This document shows positions 9,301-34,659 of a DNA stretch of 64,000 nt, piece after piece. The stretch comes from Tricharina praecox (Eukaryota). Numbering within the stretch: position 1 is the stretch's first letter; each line of letters begins with the position of its first letter. The stretch is taken from the NCBI RefSeq assembly GCF_024521635.1, contig NW_026250420.1, forward strand, positions 1-64,000. Reading direction: 5' to 3'. A model generated the notes under the pieces. It was not told where the DNA came from, did not search any database, and saw only the letters and a list, made by a program, of their open reading frames with translations. A program made the position numbers and the translations under genes.

Positions 9301-12300
9301 GAGTAGGGTAGGGTACCCGTCGGCATGCCTACCAGCCCATTGCTTTTTCCAGGCGCGCACCACCGGCCAATCGCTACTGACCGATATTCAACGTTGACGA
9401 CCCAACGTCCGCACATACGATACGATATACCGGTCGAGGACAGACTTCACGTCAACCGATATCACGAAGACAAATCCAAAAAAAGAAAACACAGAAAACA
9501 AATCCCGCGCGACAATGCAGATTGCTCTCGACCTGGCATCCGATCCAATGGGCCTCCACCCACCCAGCCCGAACGCAATCAATCAATCACGCAGATGAAA
9601 GCGAAAGTGCAGCCGAGAAACAATCTGATGCCCGTGATCGTGGGATGGATGGATGCCTTCCCACCACCACCACCGTGAACGTGACGGCGCCCTTCCCCGC
9701 CTCGTGATCAAAAGGATTGCCAACCGGCTCTTTTTCTTCGGAGTCGGTGCAGCTAACCTTACGTGGATACCGTATCTGCCAGTCCCCCCCAGATTTTCCC
9801 AGCCCCATGGGAAAGTCTGCGGATACCAAGGTAGGTATGATATGTAGCAAGGTAATATGTAGTGTAGTGCCAGACGGTGCCATACCGTGGTTATATTTTG
9901 GCAGCCCACGTACCGTACATATCTTCAAAGCGTGGTATGATAGGTAAGTACTTAGGTACCGTATAGTACCACAGATCGGAAAAGGCGAAGAATTCCACTT
10001 CGAGCCCCATTGGGTTTTGACAAGCAAGCAGGCAAGCATCCAGCCTCGGCTCCAGATCTATTCCCCGGTGAGGAAAGATATCGAATCAAATCTCTTTCTG
10101 CCTCAAACCTGAGGCAATACCTACCATACTTACATACCCGTTTGAACTGTGAACTGAACCCGTCCATGCCCAACTGCAAATTGTCATTGTCATGTCACTC
10201 AACGTTTGACAGGAACTAGAATAGAGTACTGTCAAGTAGAGTAGAGAGCTGGAACTTCGATCTCCAGTGTGTGTGATCCCTCTCCCCCTTTTTCCTGCTT
10301 CTTTTTCGGGAGAGGGTTTCTTTTCGAAACGATCCTCGGGTTTGCGACCGGGAATACCTAATAAACATGGCACTCTACTCTACTTTTACGATATTGCTGG
10401 CGCCACAGGTCCATGATCACTGGCTGGCTGTCAAGTTCCAGCTGGTAAGACCGTGAGACAGAAATCCGGGGTAGCCTACCGTAAGCTCTACTATTAGTAC
10501 CTACTACCACTACTTACTCTATGTGGATATCTACAGTTCGGGCCCACGCCATTTCCCTCTGAACCTCCCCGCCACGCCCGCACTTTTCCTACCCACATAC
10601 CATGTACATACCGTAGCTCGCCAGTACCAAGCGATACATACGGTACTTTCTACTTACTTGTATCTACCGGCCACTGCAGTAGACTCTAAAGTACAGTAGT
10701 CAACTCCATAGGCATGAGCGATCGAGACGCCACCAGCTCGCATGACGCCAAAAAAGAAGGAAAGGAAGTGGGAAAAAGGAAAGCCCTAAGCAACAGCCGC
10801 GGTACTTTTCATGCACCTCCGACCACAGCCAAGCCTGCTCGATCGATTTTAAGGTCAGGCACCAACCACTGATAGTCGCAGACGGGTGCTGTGGGTCCGA
10901 GTGCCACACTCTACAACTCCACAACTCCACAACTCCACAGCTCCATTCTCCATTCTCCACGCTCCACACACACGCATGGCTGGAAGCTTCCATTCGATAT
11001 CAGTATGTATGTTTGTATACAGTCATCATGTGTCGATCTTGGTTTGGCACTCGACCACCGGTCCAAGCATGTATCCCTAGCCCGTGACTGACTACATAGA
11101 GTGCACACTCACCTGTGTCGAAACCAGCGCCAGGGCACGCACAGCACCATCGTTATTCCGGGTACACCGAAGTCCCCTCGATTCTTTTTTCCCGTCCGTT
11201 AGCATCCGACGTTTTCAAAAGCGCCTGCGAGCACATCCAACCAACACCCTCCCCCCTCCCCCAGGCGAAACCCAACCAAACCTCCACCTCCCTCTGACAA
11301 TCCGATGATCCAGCTAGGTATCTGTGGTCATCGATTATTGGCATCATCATCATGATGATGCACAACCCGCCCCTCTACATACTCCAGCTGACGCTACCGG
11401 TAACTAGACGTTCACCACACCACACCACACCACACGGTAGCCCCGACCGGCCGTTGCGGTTATCCCAGTCTACATACATAGTTCCGTCAACGGCAGCGCC
11501 TCCCTCGGTCTACGGTGTGCGACAGGTGATGCTGGTGGTGATTGGCCAGGCGGCGCTTTCGAGGCGGGGATAGCCGTGCCAAGTTCTTGGTACTGGTGCT
11601 GGTGGTGATGGGTGGTGCTGGTGATATTTATCCCAGGCCGTACGTTTGGTGGTAGATATGTACCTTCTACAACGAGGTTGGGCGAGAGTTGAAAGTTGCG
11701 CGACGCCTACACCAATCCAGCCTCTCGCGATATGTTCAGCTCCATTACCATAGTAGAGGTACATATAGGTAAGCATTCACAACGGGACCTATATACCTGT
11801 GTGTCTATTGTTCGTCACGCCAAAGTGGCCGGCGACAAAGTCTGCAACCCCTCCAGCGACGGACGGGCTTCGCCAAAGTCCTGTACATACACACGCTAGT
11901 CGACTCGCGTTGCTCGGTTAGTCCGATGCGGGGAAACTCGGCTGGAAGGTTGGAACACCACTGTGAGGGAAAAACCTGGGGCCCCGGATCCAGTCACGTT
12001 GCTAGGGAAGCTAGTGTTAGCGTAGCGTGAGACTCGCGCTTGCGATGTCCCAAACCACTGAGCCAAGTGGACGAGCGGAACTCGATGCGGCGGCGCTGGG
12101 GGAAGAGGAAAGTTGGAACACATGGTGCCTCGGTGTCGGAACGGAGAGGAGCCAGTCGCCGCAAGCTACCTAGAGAACAGTGCGAAAGACCACCAAGATC
12201 TCGCCTCGTCGCTGCGCCTGATGACGAGGTGATTCGTGGGTCGTGGGTCGCCAGCCGATCGTCTGCCGATCGCGGCAAAGTCGACGGCATGTCGTTTTCC

Positions 12301-25430: not shown

Positions 25431-28182
25431 CTTACGCCCTTGCTAATGTAAGCCGCTATGCTCACCACCACCACTGGTCGCTAGACTGGAGGAGCATGGC
25501 ATCAAGAACTAATATGGTACGGTTAGATGAAGTTGTTGCCGAAGCAATGGTCCGATTGTGAGGGGGAGTTGCGTGCTGCCCTTTTCTAACCGCCGAGGCG
25601 GCTTCTTCTACTAGTTAACTGTTACTGTTTCCCCACTTTCCCGCTGTTTGTTTTTTCGGCCCTGCGAGGTCTCTTCTGCTCTCTGTTTTTCGACCCTACG
25701 AGGTCTCTTCTCTTCTGCCATCTGCTGCTGTCTGTTACTACCTGCTACTGCCTGCCCGCCTCACTTTCTGCGCTTGGACACGATGTTCGGGGCGGGATGT
25801 GGCTGGCAGGGGGGAATACAGTGGGTTTAATTTTCTTCTCATCTTCCGGCTGCTATTTTGTTTTCTTCTCATCCTCCGGCTGCTGTTTTGTTTTCTGTGA
25901 TCTTTGATCTTTCTTCCTGTTCTTTCTTCCTGTTCTTTCTGCATCTTCGTGCATTGCTAGCTCACTAGGATTCATGGGGCGGAGGGGAATAAAAGCGGCA
26001 AATGCGTACCTACCTAGGTAAAATCTGCACGAGTGATGCTCCGTATTTGTGCTGGTAACTGAAGTGCTCTATACAATGTTAGATCTATACGTGCAGAACC
26101 CGATCACGCCACAAGCGACATTGCTGACATCGTTATAAGATAGTGAACCGACCGTCCAGCCATGCCGAAGGATGAGCGTCCTCCGTGTCCGTGGTTTGTG
26201 GATCACGGTGTATGCTCCGGCGAGGGTGTCTTGGAGAGGGGTTACTGCCTGCCTGCCTGACGATCAAGATATCCAACCGTGGGTGATTTGAATTTGGTAC
26301 CAAACGGTATGTACTCTCGATGCAGAGGAGGTGATAGTAAACGATCAGCCGTTGGCATGGAGGCCCCGGCTCTCATTACCGCCAACGCAACTGCCCAACG
26401 GTGTACACTGGTCTTGGGCTCACACTGACGGCGGGACTCGTTTGTCGCTGGGTAGCTATCCTATTACCGCGATTATATCTCCACCACCGTATACCCCGTA
26501 CCGCCCGACCAGGCCGTCTAGATTTCCCACTTCGTACTGTGATGGAGTTTAGTTCAGCACACCTGAGAAGGGGAAGAGATGGAATTGGAAAGTCAATCAA
26601 GTTTTATCCCTCAGGGTTGGCCGTTGCAGCCCAGTAGGAGATTCATTCACACTCTTCATCACTCGCCACCTCCCCCCCCCTCCCACCCCGCACGATGATA
26701 CCTAGTACTTGTTGGCCGAAGTTATAGACTCCCTCCCAGAACTTTCTCACGCGAACTGGGTTGCGGCAGTGCACACCGGAGCCTTCCGTACAGAATATCG
26801 TGGACACAGCACAGCCCGCTGCCCGCTGCCCAGCTCTCGATTGTCAAGCGGCATGGTAGCAACGTGCGGTAGGCACTCCGTAGCTTGCTCCTCCCCCATC
26901 GTCTACCTAGTCTGCATCCAGAAAGTCGTATCATCGCAATAGGTGTATTCGAATCAGGATTCAGGCAGGCAGTAGATAGGTGCAATTGCAATTTGCATCC
27001 TCGAGCTCCCAGCGGCGCCGGCGCGGCAGGCTCCCCGAGCCTATATACCTACTCTAAGCCTCACACCGAACCATTGCACCAACGGCCGTGTTATAGTATA
27101 ACCGTGCTGTACTGTATACGCACATCATACTGTACATGGAGGAATGGAATTCCTCCCGCCTCGACTCGACTCGACTCAGCCACGATGCACCTATGTAATA
27201 TCTGCAACTGTAAGTCTGTAACTAGAGCACCTAGCCCGCTAGTTAGCGCAGTGCATCCATCATTGAGGAAAAATGTTTGCGGGATCGTCCAATGCACTGT
27301 TGACCGATCAGCACCTGGGGTACTGCCGGGCACTGCCACGATGATCACTCGAGTGTGATACAAACGAACGAAACCCAGGAAACCCAGGAAAGTACGAAAG
27401 TAGAAAAATCCGCTTCTAGGATACTTCCCGGGGGCATATTGACCATCACTCCACTGCCACGGACCACGCGCGGTACGGTAGCGAGTTGCGAGTCGGACGT
27501 GATCACCTACCGGGAAGGTTTGGCGAGGTTACATACCATAGCCACAATGACGAGCAAGGCCTGCAAGGGCTACGAGGGCTGCACTTGGCTGGCAAAGAGG
27601 CTCTCGCGAGGCGGGTGGGGCTGAGGCTGAGACCGGGAGGGGCCGGTGCACGGTGTATATGGTGCTTACATAAGTAGGTGCTGTTGGGAATTCCGTGGTT
27701 TGCACGCTGGGCTGAGCATCCCTCGCATCGCTGGTCGCCGTCGGCCATCCGCCATCCCAGTCATCTCCCTCGCGCCATCACTGCAGCAGTTGCGATCACA
27801 GGCAGTCACTCGCGCCATCACGTAAGCACCTCCGATCTTCACGCCCATTACCTTAAAGGTCCATGTACATGCCCACCTGCAGTGCAGGCTGGCACCAGTG
27901 CAGTCCACCAGTGCAGTCCACCAGGCAGCAACATTCTGCATTCTTCCCTTGAGCCTCACACGGGCCAGCACCTCGCCGGGACCATTTAAGCCGGCCGTGG
28001 CCGACCATGGACGGACGATGGTGCGTGTTCGCGAACACAGCACCGCACAGTACAGCACCTCTACTCCCACCCCTCCACCCACACACCCCACTACACCAGC
28101 GGAAATCATCGGCGGATCAGCAAATACGATCCGAAACGAATAAATAATTACTAAGGAAAGAAATACGCTACAATACGGTACA

Positions 28183-28525
28183 ATGGTGCTCCAGGAAATC
28201 GACGCGGACTACATCGGCCGCGACCAGCTCGTAAAGCTGCTCAAGAGGAAGTTTGGGAGTAATTATTCGTTCCACGTATGTTCTCCCCGCGCCGCACGCC
28301 GTGACTGGTCGAGGAGGAGCGGCGAAAGAGAGAGAGAGAGACGCCTGGCACTGGCACTGACACTGGACGTGTTCGCGAACAGCTGAGCGCTGGCCATTGG
28401 GTCGTTGATGTGCCCGATTATATCTCCGAGGTATGTACCCAGGTCCTGGCCTGTCCTGATGGTGGCGGTGGTGTTGACAGACGTCGTGATAGTACGAGAT
28501 CGAGTGTGCGCAGGAGGAGGGGTAG
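28183..28525 (+). CDS. 57-aa microprotein, 3 exons (28183-28275, 28383-28430, 28493-28525)
   Basis: ACAATGG start, two GTATGT donors, CTGAC and TTGAC branch points, phase-0 joins giving MVLQEIDADYIGRDQLVKLLKRKFGSNYSFHLSAGHWVVDVPDYISEYEIECAQEEG. An alternative acceptor at 28480 would give ..SETS*. Confidence 0.75.
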
Positions 28526-29200
28526 CGGAGCGGAGCTGGGGCTTGTGGGGTGGTGGAGGGGTACGGTAGCGATTTGCGAGTTCGCGAACTCGCGAACTCG
28601 CAAGGCTGTGGGGGCGGAAGGAAGGAAACTTGGCGATCGATGTTGTTGCTGTTGATGAGCGGACGGAAGGACTTCATTTGCTACATACTCCATCTACCTA
28701 TCCTCTGGCCTGGCGGCGGCGAGGGCGGAGTATTTTGCCTTTCTTATGCACTCACATATCGGAATTCCTCTCTCGTATCGTATGTAACGGCAGCATTTTA
28801 CTGGGCTGGCTAGCCTTTTTTCTTCTCGCTTTGGCTGCGCTGGGCTGTGATTTTCGCTGTGTGTGCGACGTGATTTGCTGTAGATTTGCTGCTTGATTTG
28901 CTGCTGCTGCCGGGGGCGGTGTGCGCTGTGCATGGTTTGGTGGTGGTGGTGGTGGTGGTGGTGGTAGTCGGTCGCTTGCTCCGCACCGCAGCTGCAATGC
29001 AGCAGCATGGCCGCAGGTTTCATCAAGGAGAGTGAGAGACAGTGAGAGACAGAGAGAGAGAGAGAGAGACCACGTTGGCGCCGGCTGATTGATTGATTGA
29101 TTGAATGATGATATAAGACGTCCGATCCGCCGCGCAGCCACCGTAGTTTCATATTCCGTTCCGCTCCGTTTCTGCTTCCTCGGCCATCCTATCCATCAGC

Positions 29201-31241
29201 ATGACTGCCACAGCGACTGCGAACGCGACCGCTCGTCCGAATGTTACCACCACCACCACCGCCACAGTGCCAACCGACGTGCCGACGGGCCTGCAGCACC
29301 ACAACCCGCTCGTCGACGATGTCGCCGCGCGCAACGGTCGCCTCACCGCCGATCGCGACCGCCTCTTTGCGCCAGAGCAGATCTCGATCGATACGCTCGA
29401 CGTCAACCTGAGCGCCGAGGGGGAGCAGTGCGAAGGTTAGTCGCGGTCGCTCGTGCGGGGGGATGGCGGGGGAGGGGGGGGGTGGGGGGGGGGGGGGGGC
29501 GCGCGAACAGAACAGCCAGTTGACCTAGCTGCAGTGAAGCGAACATGGACGGACGCTGCCGAGTTCAGTGCGCAATGTCTGCAGCAGCCCACTCACGACA
29601 GTCGCTACTACATCCTGAAGCCGTTCCGGCCGAAGGTGATATCGCGGTCGCCGCTGCACATTACGGAGGAGGCGGCGCGGCAGCTGCTCGCGACGCACGA
29701 GGTCATGCCGAGTTTTCTCGACCACCTACATGCGTACGGTCGGCGCAAGAACCGCGAGCAGGATGGATGCTTCGGTGGTGGACGCTATCTCCTCGGGTTC
29801 TCCGAGGAGTCAAAGGTTACCCAGCACGAGATCGCGTATACGGTTAAGTTTGGCGTCAATAATGGCCGCAAGGAGGAGACCAGCCCGTATCTGTACAGCA
29901 TCCGTCAGACAAGTGTGTATCAGAAGTTTTGCTACGATGAGCGGAAGTCCGTGTGGATCCTGGTGCAGCCGTCGGACGCGGTGCAGCGGCGGCTGTACGC
30001 GGCGGCGCCAAAGGAGGTGGTCCTGGCTGGCGGGAACCCGCTCAAGATGCATCTGCTGTTCTTCTCTGCGGCGAGCGAGGGGTGGCGGGACTACTACAAC
30101 CACCTTGAAAAGATCTTCTACGAGACGACGGCGGCGGCCGTCAACTACACCGTGCAGCGGAGCAACGAGAAGTACACGCCGCAGGGCATGCAGGGCCCGC
30201 AGGTCCAGCACTTTGAGGGCACGCGCGGCGATCCGCTCGAGAAGTTCCAGGTGGATTTCCAGGATGTGCAGGATCTGCAGCGGCTCGAGGAGCTGCTCCG
30301 CCGCGTCAAGACTGCGATCGAGGTCAACTCCGACTCGATCCGCAGTCTCAAGGCTTTGAACAACAAGCTGCGGGAGCTGTCCTCTGCGACGACAGGCGGG
30401 ATGACGCTCGCCGCGTGGAGCGAAGTTGACATCGAGGCGTCGCAGCAACTCGCGATCCTCGAGAGCCACAAACGCAACTTCGAGTCGCTGCTGCAGAACG
30501 TGCACGGCCGCTCGCAGCTGCTCTACAACGTCCTCGACTTCAAGAACGCGCTCACAGTCTCGCACCACTCCCAACGCGCGGTCGATATCCGCGCCCTCCA
30601 GGCAAACGAACAGACTATGATGACGATGCTGAACGAGATGTCGATGCGCGACGCCATCGGCGTGCGCATCCTGACGCTGCTGGCGACGCTGTACGTGCCC
30701 GCCTCCTTCGTGGCAGTAAGTGATCCCCCGTTCCCCATCCACCTCCTCACCCTCAAAGCCCGGGGAGCCAACTGATCCGCTAGATTCCACTCAGACATTT
30801 CTCGACGCCGGCGTCGTAACATTCGACGAGACGCGCAGCACCAAGGCGGGCATCGACTTCAGCCGGATGCGGGTGTCACGGGAGACGACTGTGTTCTACC
30901 TGGTATTCACCACGCTGCTGATGGCGATTACCTACGGCTGCTGGTGGCTGTGGCAGCGCACCGCCACCGGTCAGGTCGAGAAGAAACTCTCCATCACCCG
31001 CGCGAACTCTATGGAGCCCGAGAAGGGGCTGCTTCGCAGCCCCACCGCCGGCACTGCGGGAAGTAATCCCATGAGACAGCAGAGGAGACTGGGAAGTCTG
31101 CTCCCCATCTCGCCGCAAGGTACGCACCATCATGGTGCACCGCCGCCGATGACGCCCGTGCCGATGACCCCTATGTCACCGACGTCCCCGATGTCGCCAA
31201 TGTCGCCAATGTCGACTAAGTCGAGGAGTACGTGGGCTTGA
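29201..31241 (+). CDS. Fungal CorA-like membrane protein, about 628 aa, 3 exons (29201-29435, 29511-30715, 30795-31241)
   Basis: SIRQTSVYQKF..WILVQP, long helical stalk, and two C-terminal hydrophobic helices (ILTLLATLYVPASFVATFL; FYLVFTTLLMAITYGCWWLW). Introns keep the frame (1887 nt). Confidence 0.85.
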
Positions 31242-31951
31242 TTTTTGGGCTTGATTTTTGCGTTGAGTGTTTTTGCTTTTGATTTTGATTTTTGGGAATG
31301 GGAGTTTGGGGGCATTTATTGGCGTTTGGGGATCAAAATGTAATGGAAACGAAGGAATGAATCATGAACTGCTATGCAGAGGATTACTCATGTTCCGAAC
31401 AAGTACCTGCTATGTACCTGAAGTACTCTACAGCGAATAGCCGGCCATTCCAGCAGGAACGTGATCATCATGGCCAATGGCATGTACTATCCATAGCTGC
31501 AAGAATTGGCAGGTTAGTGGGCCTGATATGCACAGGTATGTACCATGTACTCTACTTACTGCCCGCAACCCACTACCTACATACTTGCCGTACTTCATAT
31601 GTACAAAGTACTTGGTTACTGTCCACTCTTACTCGAACGTATCATCCTTCATCAACGGGCATCTACTCCGTCCCAGATAACGTAGACCATCCAAGCCAAC
31701 CGATGCTCACGAATCTCAGCTGCACATGCTTGAAGAAAGTTGTCCAACACCACACCCGCATCGACGCTAGACCTATTAATGCAGGTCGTAGCACCCATCG
31801 CAGCCACGGGCTCCCCCGCACTCAGCCCAATCGAACCCTTGGGCGGGCGGGCGGGCGTGCGTGCGTAGATAGAGTAAGTAAGTAAGTAAGCATCCCGCGC
31901 TCACCTCTTACCTCCACCGATCAATGCACCCGTCCCCCCTTACGCTCCACG

Positions 31952-34659
31952 ATGAGCAGCCGCGCCGCCTACGACGACCTCGCGCGGACCCTGGACCGGC
32001 TTGAGATCGTGAACTGCGACAAGAAGCCGTTCATTCCTGCGGACGGCTTCGACGGCGCCGTGACGCGGTCGTTCCTATCCACGGTCGTTTCCGACCTCCT
32101 CCCCTTCTCCGACGGCGGTGCCAGTGCACACGTCCACCTCCAGCAGCTGTACGAGTCGTACCGCAAGGTCATCGCCATCCTCGTCATGATGCGGTATGAG
32201 CAAAGCTTCGTCCGCTTCTGGGAGACCAACACGTGTGATCGCGACCTGCCGCTGGATCAGGAGCGGCTCGCGGAGATTGATGGGGACCTCTGGTGGCCCA
32301 AGTGGAATGGCCTGCAGTATAAGTTCCTCGCGAGGATGTACTGTGAGGAGACAGAGTCGCAGCAGTGGTCGGACGATTATGTCCTCCCCATCCTCGAGAA
32401 GGTCTATAGGTCCAGAGGAGCGTTCTCGGAGGTCTACAAGATCCACATTCATCCGCACTATGACCGACTGAATTTTCGGGGACATCATGAGGTGGGCTGG
32501 GGGGGACACTCTGCACATCTGGAGCACGGGCTGACACTCTTCCCTAGCCACACTGGTACGCGCTGAAGCAACTCAAGACCTCAGCGGACGCCAAAGTCAA
32601 CGAGCGCAAACTGCGAGAATGGCAAGACGAAGTTGCGGCAAACGCGCTGGTGCGCAAGCAGCAACACAACAACTACGCATACAGCAGCATCCTGCCGCTG
32701 CTGCACTCGCACACGTATGGCAAGCAGTGCAATCTCGTCTTTCCACTCGCAAACTACAACCTGCGCGAGTTCTATGCGAAGGAGCCAATGCCCCCCTCCA
32801 GTCTCCACCGCTTCAGGTTTGTAGAACAGATCTCGAGGCTCGTACCAGCGCTCGGATTGATACATCAGGGAGAGATTGATTCTACCTGCCAGTGGCAGTG
32901 GATCGGCCTGCATCGCGATTTGAAACCAGGTTTGCTCCCGGGAGACGAGTGGAGTGCGGAGCTAGGCTGGGCTGGGCTGGCGGCGCTAACTAACGCACCG
33001 CAGATAACATCCTCGTAGTGTGCGGCATGACGCCGCGCTTCATGATCTCTGACCTTGGGCTCATGAAGTTCCGCAAGGTGAAGTCGGGGTCGCGCGAGTA
33101 CTCCGGCGAGGAGTGGAAGCTCGGTGTGTCCGCGTACAAGGCGCCGGAGTGCGACGTCAAGGGCAAGCGCGTGGGGCGCGGCGCCGACATCTGGAGCTTG
33201 GGGTGCATACTCGCCGAGGCGATCACGTGGTGCGTCTGCGGCCTCCAGGGCATCCGCGAGTTCCAGCGCCGAAGGTCGACCGAGGACTCGTACGGCGACT
33301 CGTCGGACGTGTTTTTTTGCAAGAGCGGCTCGCCGGGCGCGAAGGAGGTGCCGCGCTTGAAGACCGAGGTGCTGGATTGGTTCGCAGAGGTGAAGAAGGC
33401 CGCTGGCGAAGAGGACCGGTTGGTCGCTGAGACGCTGGCGCTGGTCGAGCTGATGCTGAAGGAGAACGACCGGGGCGCGAAGGGCCGCCCCAGCGCGGAA
33501 AAGATCGATTGCGCGTTCTACACGATCCTGAAGCAGGAGGCTTCGAAGCAGGCGTGGCCACTGTCGATTTCGGAGCCGGCGTACTACTTCAAGAATCTCG
33601 ACCGGCGCACGCACGCGCTGCCACGCGACATCCTGCCGTTCTCGTACTCGCGCTCCACCAGCTTGATGACGCCGACGACCCCCGGGCCCATGCCGTTCAG
33701 TCCGAATTTTCCGAGTTTTCCGAGGTCGGGCGGCCTGGCGAGCCCCGCTGGTGGTGCTGGTGCCGGGAAGCGCAGGAGAAGCGAGGACGACTCGTTCGTG
33801 CCGCCGTCGCTGCCGAATTCCTCGACTGGCAGCACGGTACGGCCCGTCAAGCGCAAGCGCGAGGTTTCCGCATTCGCACATCTGAAACGGCTGGATACGG
33901 TGAGCTCCCCCGGCCCGCATACGTGCACTCCACGGCTCTAACCACACCCGCAGATGTTCCTAATCGACGACTTCGTCTCGGAGACTCCCTGGACCCGAAT
34001 CCGCACAACCCTTCAAAAGCTCTCCTCGATCGCGACGCAATGGGACCAAGACGGCGTAGACATTGCGTTCATCAACAGTTCGTCCTACGCCTCGTGCCTA
34101 TCCACGCCGTCGGACGTGCTCTCAGCGCTCGACAAGACTGGGTACACAGCGACAAGCACGAGCACGCTCTCGTTCCGCCTGGACATGCTCCTCTCGTCGT
34201 ACATCAACCTGTACAAGCGCGATGAGTTCACGAAGCCGCTCAACATGATCATCATCACCAGCGGCGACTTCCTGGCGCACGACGAGTTTGAGAAGGTTGT
34301 CATGACGTGGGCGAAACAGCTCGACGAGATCTATGCGCCCAAAAGTCAGCTAAGCCTGCAGTTCGTCCTCGTCGGCTGCAAGGGCGAGAATAGGAGGAGA
34401 TTCGAGGACCTCGATGATGAGCTGTATAAGGAGTATGGCGTTAGGTATGCCCCCCACCTCTTTCTGCTTTGCTTCGGCTGTGGCGAGCTGCGGCGGCTGA
34501 TAGAAATACAGAGATATGGTCGACGCCACCTGCTACGACCCAAACGAGCCGGATAGTCAGGAGGTCTTTGAGAAGATCTTGTGTGGAGGCATGATTGCCA
34601 CGTACAATCGTGTGCAGGACGAGACTTCGGATCTGTCCATGATGGCGGTGGACCTGTGA
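31952..34659 (+). CDS. Ser/Thr protein kinase fused to a C-terminal vWA-like domain, about 818 aa, 5 exons (31952-32491, 32548-32929, 33004-33899, 33954-34444, 34512-34659)
   Basis: RGAFSEVYK, YALK, helix-C Glu, HRDLKPDNIL, SDLG, APE, DIWSLGC. Then FLIDD, DQDGVDIAFIN, KPLNMIIIT, QFVLVG, LDD and RDMVD of fungal vWA proteins. Spliced length 2457 nt. Confidence 0.9.

Follow-up and report, generated by a model that had tools for sequence, protein, structure and literature searches.

The window analysed here is a 64,000-nt stretch of Tricharina praecox DNA (contig NW_026250420.1, positions 1 to 64,000), in which a very small gene on the plus strand is followed by a gene for a CorA-like membrane protein on the same strand and then by a kinase-like gene. 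The start codon of the mini-gene, at 28183, was read directly from the window sequence in the context tacaATGG. It is the first AUG of the transcript: no ATG lies upstream of it, and an in-frame TAA is found at 28141-28143. The 5' UTR covers at least 28115-28182, given that the transcript contigs described below start at 28115 and 28141 in runs X1 and X2, respectively. Coding exon 1 (28183-28275, 93 nt) specifies 31 residues with a near-invariant N-terminus, coding exon 2 (28383-28430, 48 nt) specifies 16 residues with a conserved WVV[DE]VP motif, and coding exon 3 (28493-28525, 33 nt) specifies 10 residues and ends in a TAG stop; the 3' UTR then runs from 28526 to the contig end at 28763 (X1) or 28761 (X2). 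Intron 1 (28276-28382, 107 nt) has the form GTATGT...CAG and intron 2 (28431-28492, 62 nt) the form GTATGT...TAG, with branch-like sites (CTGAC and TTGAC, respectively) about 15-25 nt before the acceptors.

All exon junctions are in phase 0. The start context, the two GTATGT donors, the branch sites and the phase-0 exons of 93, 48 and 33 nt on which the first-pass annotation of this DNA had built its model are all present in the sequence, and translation of the joined frame gives the 57-residue product that it had announced. The protein is acidic (computed pI 4.5) and soluble, and has no signal peptide.

Contigs from sequencing runs were placed on positions 27000-33500 of the window, and the gene was found in X1 and X2, which belong to two different studies. 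In each of these runs a single contig (480 nt in X1, 452 nt in X2) consists of 28115/28141-28275, 28383-28430 and 28493-28763/28761. The second joint was reported as 28428/28491 with a cut of +2, which places it at 28430/28493; both of the splice junctions predicted earlier, 28275/28383 and 28430/28493, were therefore seen exactly, with GT..AG borders, in both runs that contain the gene. There are three contigs per run, and they show zero differing letters relative to the window. Given that all seven joints across the three adjacent genes are GT..AG, that the contigs stop at gene borders and that Illumina adapter remnants remain on two contig ends, we infer that X1 and X2 are cDNA. The mini-gene is transcribed and is spliced exactly as predicted. 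Furthermore, the GT..AG polarity fixes the transcript on the plus strand, and a 118-codon antisense ORF can therefore be dismissed. It should be noted that X1 and X2 provide no contig cover at 27000-28114, 28764-29170 and 31358-31931, which is not read as silence, and that X3 and X4, both soil metatranscriptomes, contain no contig matching 27000-33500.

For comparison, a metagenome scan with the relative P0002 (described below) as query confirmed at least 12 loci among 592 pattern-matching stretches. Among the scan matches listed, L001 and L002 were kept; these are near-identical fungal contigs of 84.6 and 74.1 kb from metagenomes, and together with the window they amount to two independent genomic contexts. 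The ten loci L003-L012 were dropped: they match only query residues 16-56, which is mostly the low-complexity read-through tail, at 41-44%, and give E > 4 against the spliced proteins. The L001 mini-gene has exons at 10001-10093, 10140-10187 and 10237-10263 (93, 48 and 27 nt) and encodes 55 residues. In L001 and L002 the GTATGT donors stand at the same codons as in the window, such that two phase-0 introns at conserved codons are a feature common to all three, with intron lengths of 46 and 49 nt versus 107 and 62 nt in the window.

Across exons 1 and 2, the window and L001 differ 7, 7 and 30 times at codon positions 1, 2 and 3, respectively, and the third-position share of 30 out of 44 has a binomial P of 2.5e-6 against an expectation of one third. 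By the Nei-Gojobori method, the 47 codons give a pN of 0.168 and a pS of 0.832 (pN/pS ~0.2). Per column of the alignment, the identity is 0.68, 0.71 and 0.61 in exons 1, 2 and 3; outside the exons, the same comparison gives 0.22 and 0.35 for the introns, 0.39 for the upstream region and 0.28 for the 3' UTR. Besides the antisense frame of 118 codons, the spliced window transcript contains a 61-codon ORF in another frame, and this alternative-frame ORF shows no conservation in L001. Judged by these sequence comparisons, the mini-gene is protein-coding and under purifying selection.

Relatives of the protein are few. When the read-through ORF served as query in a word-based protein search, one relative emerged from three candidates, P0002, which consists of exon 1 followed by intron read-through; a second word-based search returned nothing but the query (1/1). 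A profile of exon 1 was then run against the full set of 1.84 billion representatives at a threshold of E <= 0.001, proteins of any length being admitted. It matched eight proteins, six of which were accepted, and the E values for the family range from 4e-17 to 1e-4. The two that were dropped, P0007 and P0008, are repeat proteins matched in 6-7 partial stretches, which on reading are ankyrin-like and wall-anchor-like repeats. P0003, P0004 and P0006 are once more products in which exon 1 runs on into read-through; in P0009, intron 1 has been retained in frame and the protein stops at a V that follows exon 2; and P0005, a metagenomic protein of 57 residues on a 908-nt contig, is colinear with the spliced window product. 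The sixth accepted match is P0010, described below. A profile search with a wider alignment (seven matches among 34 candidates) added P0015, a 57-residue hypothetical protein of Trichophaea hybrida (BDD12DRAFT_886647) that is likewise colinear with the spliced product, and P0016, which has 98 residues.

The window product is identical to P0005 at 40/57 positions (70%), to the L001 protein at 38/55, to P0015 at 36/56 and to the domain found in a larger protein, P0010, at 28/57. The relatives have in common the motifs MVLQEIDADY-type, KFG..YSF and WVV[DE]VP, and across the stand-alone forms hardly any variation is seen in the ten N-terminal residues, MVLQEIDADY. In each of the five relatives whose prediction comes from unspliced DNA, the residue right after the end of exon 1 is V (GTN), as expected if a GT donor stands at this codon. 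The expectation that a gene this small would upset gene callers was borne out, in that only two of the relatives found are predicted as intact 57-residue proteins, the others being read-through or clipped products. The named members come from Trichophaea hybrida and Wilcoxina mikolae only, both of which are Pyronemataceae (Pezizales).

Known families gave no counterpart. In Pfam, P0005 matched none at E <= 0.1, and exon 1 alone gave no family match. A DUF2492 match (E 0.004) in the Pfam search of exon 1 and the read-through ORF was rejected as sub-threshold noise, as was a sub-threshold BRD4_CDT match that falls in the intron-derived tail of the read-through ORF. In the Atlas, the best scores for P0005 are 0.86 and 0.85, to unnamed Ascomycota clusters; these are below the counting level and serve as a lead only. 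The titles and abstracts retrieved by locus tag, accession or subject offer no account of these proteins. The mini-gene product is a member of a small, undescribed family, and as an entity the gene is of an ordinary kind, namely a conserved, poorly annotated microprotein gene.

The largest relative, P0010 (KAF8243706.1 of Wilcoxina mikolae), has 817 residues; the module occupies residues 650-705 and is preceded by a C2H2 finger (zf-met, Pfam) at residues 306-325. This copy of the module lacks a Met at its start and departs from the family at positions that are invariant elsewhere. It could be that the gene model behind P0010 is mis-fused. Against this, the domain has no start codon at the place where one would be expected; moreover, when P0010 was compared with L001, L002 and the window by tblastn, the domain alone matched, and the lack of a homologue of its N-terminal part upstream of the gene in L001 and the window also counts against mis-fusion.

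To obtain a structural model, P0005 was submitted to AlphaFold2 together with A3, an alignment of the family. A pLDDT of 93.6 and a pTM of 0.76 were obtained, with strands at residues 2-7, 29-33 and 36-41 and helices at 13-24 and 47-56. The beta-alpha-beta-beta-alpha arrangement first suggested from the window sequence is thereby reproduced on a homologue that is 70% identical to the window protein. Foldseek found no match for the model in the PDB at E <= 0.001, the best being de novo designs at E 0.16. In a wide VIA structure search, the best match was the HMA protein GolB (4y2i_A; Z 5.3, rmsd 2.1 over 51 residues); the ACT domains of AcuB and TyrA gave Z 4.6-5.0, and ACT, secretin-N and similar domains gave Z 4-5. 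On the VIA scale a Z under 8 may reflect a common arrangement only, and all matches here have Z <= 5.3.

Ferredoxin-like domains such as HMA and ACT are beta-alpha-beta-beta-alpha-beta units. Five of these six elements are present in the P0005 model, with Z 4.6-5.3 to HMA and ACT chains, and the order and packing of these first five elements match those of HMA (GolB, Atx1) and ACT domains. However, HMA and ACT domains have a fourth strand, whereas the P0005 model ends after helix 2. Since the GolB alignment, which sets model residues 3-54 on chain residues 0-58 of 65, ends at residue 58, the last strand of GolB has no counterpart. A second difference concerns the loop between strand 1 and helix 1, which contains CxxC in HMA domains; the corresponding loop of the window protein reads D-A-D-Y-I, and no family member has a Cys there. 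The single Cys of the window protein lies in exon 3 and is not conserved, and neither the HMA nor the ACT profile of Pfam matched P0005. The predicted fold would be ferredoxin-like, of HMA/ACT type, ending after helix 2 without the fourth strand, and the likeness is one of topology, not homology. In P0010, the residues that follow the module (RRWVEGG...) might supply the missing strand.

The DNA around the mini-gene is marked by a repeated element. A 14-nt sequence, CGTGTTCGCGAACA, with the palindromic core GTGTTCGCGAACAC, lies at 28024-28037, some 87 nt before the furthest 5' contig end. Comparison of repeats revealed a second exact copy in intron 1, at 28368-28381, and a third copy, 86% identical, in the 3' UTR at 28577-28590, within a stretch given as 28577-28597. 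All three TTCGCGAA sites of the 64-kb window are found at the mini-gene, and seven of its eight TCGCGAAC sites cluster there. In 20 kb of L001, there is a single TCGCGAAC site, located 51 nt upstream of the orthologous ATG. We regard the upstream CGTGTTCGCGAACA copy as a candidate cis-regulatory site; the TTCnnGAA core of the GTGTTCGCGAACAC element presumably resembles a heat-shock-element unit. Given the separate contigs of the mini-gene and its neighbour, the clustering of TCGCGAAC and the location of the single L001 site upstream of the ATG, the mini-gene appears to have its own promoter, marked by the gene-specific repeated palindrome GTGTTCGCGAACAC.

Two further observations concern repeated elements. 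In P0003, the translated read-through upstream reads as though the palindrome GTGTTCGCGAACAC had been retained there as well. In addition, a 22-nt direct repeat, GGTACGGTAGCGA(G/T)TTGCGAGT, occurs at 27472-27493 and 28560-28581; its two copies are 95% identical and, at a spacing of 1088 nt, bracket the promoter and coding region of the mini-gene.

The CorA-like gene occupies 29171-31357 on the plus strand and is covered by contigs of its own, which span 29186 (X1) or 29171 (X2) to 31357; those of the kinase-like gene start at 31956 and 31932, and both genes are spliced at GT..AG sites. The coding sequence of the CorA-like gene starts at 29201 and is interrupted by introns at 29436-29534 and 30716-30794. 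The CorA-like label comes from the Atlas, where a score of 0.97 links the product to clusters with PF26616 (CorA-like) in 77% of their members, and is a lead only. A local Pfam search of its exon pieces gave no CorA match, and the PDB contains no sequence match to it. The spliced product has, on reading, two hydrophobic segments near its C-terminus, taken as two transmembrane helices; the GMN motif is absent. An AlphaFold2 model of its exon 2 reached a pLDDT of 42.6 and was unusable, and no structure search was made from it.

The second intron of the CorA-like gene shows alternative 3' splice sites 11 nt apart, ending at 30794 or 30783. Run X1 accordingly shows exon 3 beginning at 30784, and run X2 shows it beginning at 30795: a start at 30795 leads to a 620-residue protein with both transmembrane segments, and one at 30784 leads to a frame shift and a 483-residue product without the second segment. 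The first intron contains a long G-run at 29458-29500. Microsatellites of the types (GGT)n, (GA)n and (GATT)n lie between the two genes, in the stretches 28938-28962, 29040-29070 and 29087-29106, and the (GGT)n tract is complementary to an (ACC)n run of threonine codons at the start of the CorA-like coding sequence.

The stop codon of the mini-gene and the ATG of the CorA-like gene are 675 nt apart in the window, compared with 410 nt in L001 and L002, with both genes on the same strand. In L001 the small gene is followed by a CorA-like homologue (ATG at 10674, 61% identity over the main exon) and then by a kinase-like gene. A similar small ORF next to a CorA-like homologue, the absence of which would have spoken against the first-pass annotation, is present in L001 and L002, where such a gene lies directly upstream. 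In translated comparison, the window from 28144 to about 41700 is colinear with L001 9998-20100, a block of some 13.5 kb that includes several genes. No window ORF upstream of 28144 matches L001, and the detectable synteny starts exactly at the mini-gene. The CorA-like homologue of L001 shows interruptions where exon 2 of the window is continuous, namely an in-frame 57-nt stretch with two stop codons at 11494-11550 and a frame change at about 11923-11977; these are probably additional introns.

Overall, 28115-28763 on the plus strand is transcribed, spliced twice and under selection for its protein, and we consider it probable that it forms a gene of its own whose 57-residue product belongs to an undescribed family; a function of this product as a stand-alone module is the more tentative part of this reading. 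The principal alternative ties the protein to its neighbours. The first-pass annotation had proposed a dedicated partner of the CorA-like protein or of the kinase, possibly on a shared transcript. As a partner or regulator, the protein would bind the cytoplasmic domain of the CorA-like membrane protein or the kinase-like product, and the adjacency of the genes would serve their co-regulation. Same-strand adjacency is indeed conserved between the window and L001 in spite of saturated synonymous sites, the point at which synteny sets in coincides with the mini-gene, and the protein has an acidic strand-to-helix loop (E5, D7, D9) at the position where ligands are bound in HMA and ACT domains, which would be in keeping with a role connected with cations.

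Nevertheless, the adjacency does not single out the pair formed by the mini-gene and the CorA-like gene, since it is part of a colinear block of several genes; of the partner proposal, the conserved neighbourhood stands and its specificity for the pair does not. The mini-protein has no sequence similarity to either neighbour (the best other match in the window has E = 0.38), and a complex prediction for P0005 (alignment A4) with exon 2 of the CorA-like gene (alignment A5) scored 0.00 and was counted neither way. CorA-like (PF26616) clusters are large and widespread in the Ascomycota, whereas the microprotein clusters found number about eight, a point that is weakened by the bias of annotation against such small genes. 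Furthermore, Wilcoxina has the domain in an unrelated zinc-finger protein. The contigs of the two genes are also separate in both runs, ending at 28763 and 28761 and resuming at 29186 and 29171; contigs cannot prove transcript ends, and this is a weak hint, by which the shared transcript is not supported. Hence, we rate a dedicated partnership as unlikely.

Another possibility is that the mini-gene acts on its neighbour in cis, as an upstream regulatory ORF or a unit of transcriptional interference whose transcription or translation would adjust the CorA-like gene, on a transcript that is shared or reads through, with the peptide itself being unimportant. The tandem orientation and the short spacer would suit such an arrangement, and the microsatellites between 28763 and 29171 (28931-29113 is flagged) could have broken the assembly of a longer transcript. 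However, the contigs of the two runs end within 2 nt of each other and about 170 nt before the repeats, and those of the neighbour are separate. An unimportant peptide is also at odds with the strong purifying selection on it (seen both in pN/pS and in the 30 of 44 third-position differences), with its confidently predicted fold and with its occurrence as a domain of a larger protein, which together make this reading very improbable. That the gene yields a spliced non-coding RNA whose open frame is a matter of chance, as the mere 57 codons and the presence of the 61-codon and 118-codon frames might suggest, is the least credible of all, given the codon-position pattern, the conserved phase-0 introns and stop region, the lack of conservation of the alternative frames in L001, the independent annotation of homologues in two named species and the plus-strand polarity of the transcript.

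For the independent gene with its stand-alone module, a role in binding or regulation is a possibility that we put forward tentatively. It is favoured by three features: the absence of the fourth strand, conservation that is highest in the first strand and the acidic loop after it, and the presence of the same module in a zinc-finger protein. A sheet that lacks the fourth strand would leave the edge of its first strand free, and the conserved N-terminal strand and loop (MVLQEIDADY) would form the interface. Binding would then occur by strand pairing, either to a partner protein or to a second copy of the module. A possible partner would be a larger protein with the same domain, such as the 817-residue zinc-finger protein of Wilcoxina. 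The gene would be driven by its own promoter and would not be co-transcribed with the downstream CorA-like gene.

Regulation of this kind would follow the logic of microProteins, a concept that comes from plants and animals. MicroProteins are described as small single-domain proteins that regulate larger, related multidomain proteins (PMC7534434). The likeness is that the mini-gene product consists of one domain standing alone, and that P0010, a larger multidomain protein, contains this domain too. In the present family a regulatory pairing of this sort is putative, and the large form was seen in one species, Wilcoxina mikolae; sequence comparison within the 64-kb window found no large relative carrying the domain. 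In its most specific form, the proposal would be that of a microProtein-type regulator whose incomplete ferredoxin-like domain completes its sheet with the zinc-finger homologue or with the cytoplasmic domain of the CorA-like protein and thereby switches this partner, possibly through a cation at the E-x-D-x-D loop, with expression driven by the palindromic promoter and intron element GTGTTCGCGAACAC. In all its details together, we hold this to be distinctly unlikely.

Taken together, our results describe a case of a multi-exon microprotein gene that is mostly missed or mis-called by standard gene callers. The family is new, and its predicted truncated ferredoxin-like fold occurs as a protein by itself and also as part of a larger one. 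If the module regulates no partner, it would be a conserved small gene of unknown function that is still useful for the annotation of Pezizomycetes. If it is true that the module regulates a CorA-like or zinc-finger partner, it would represent microProtein-type regulation in a fungus, in a form that can be worked on directly.
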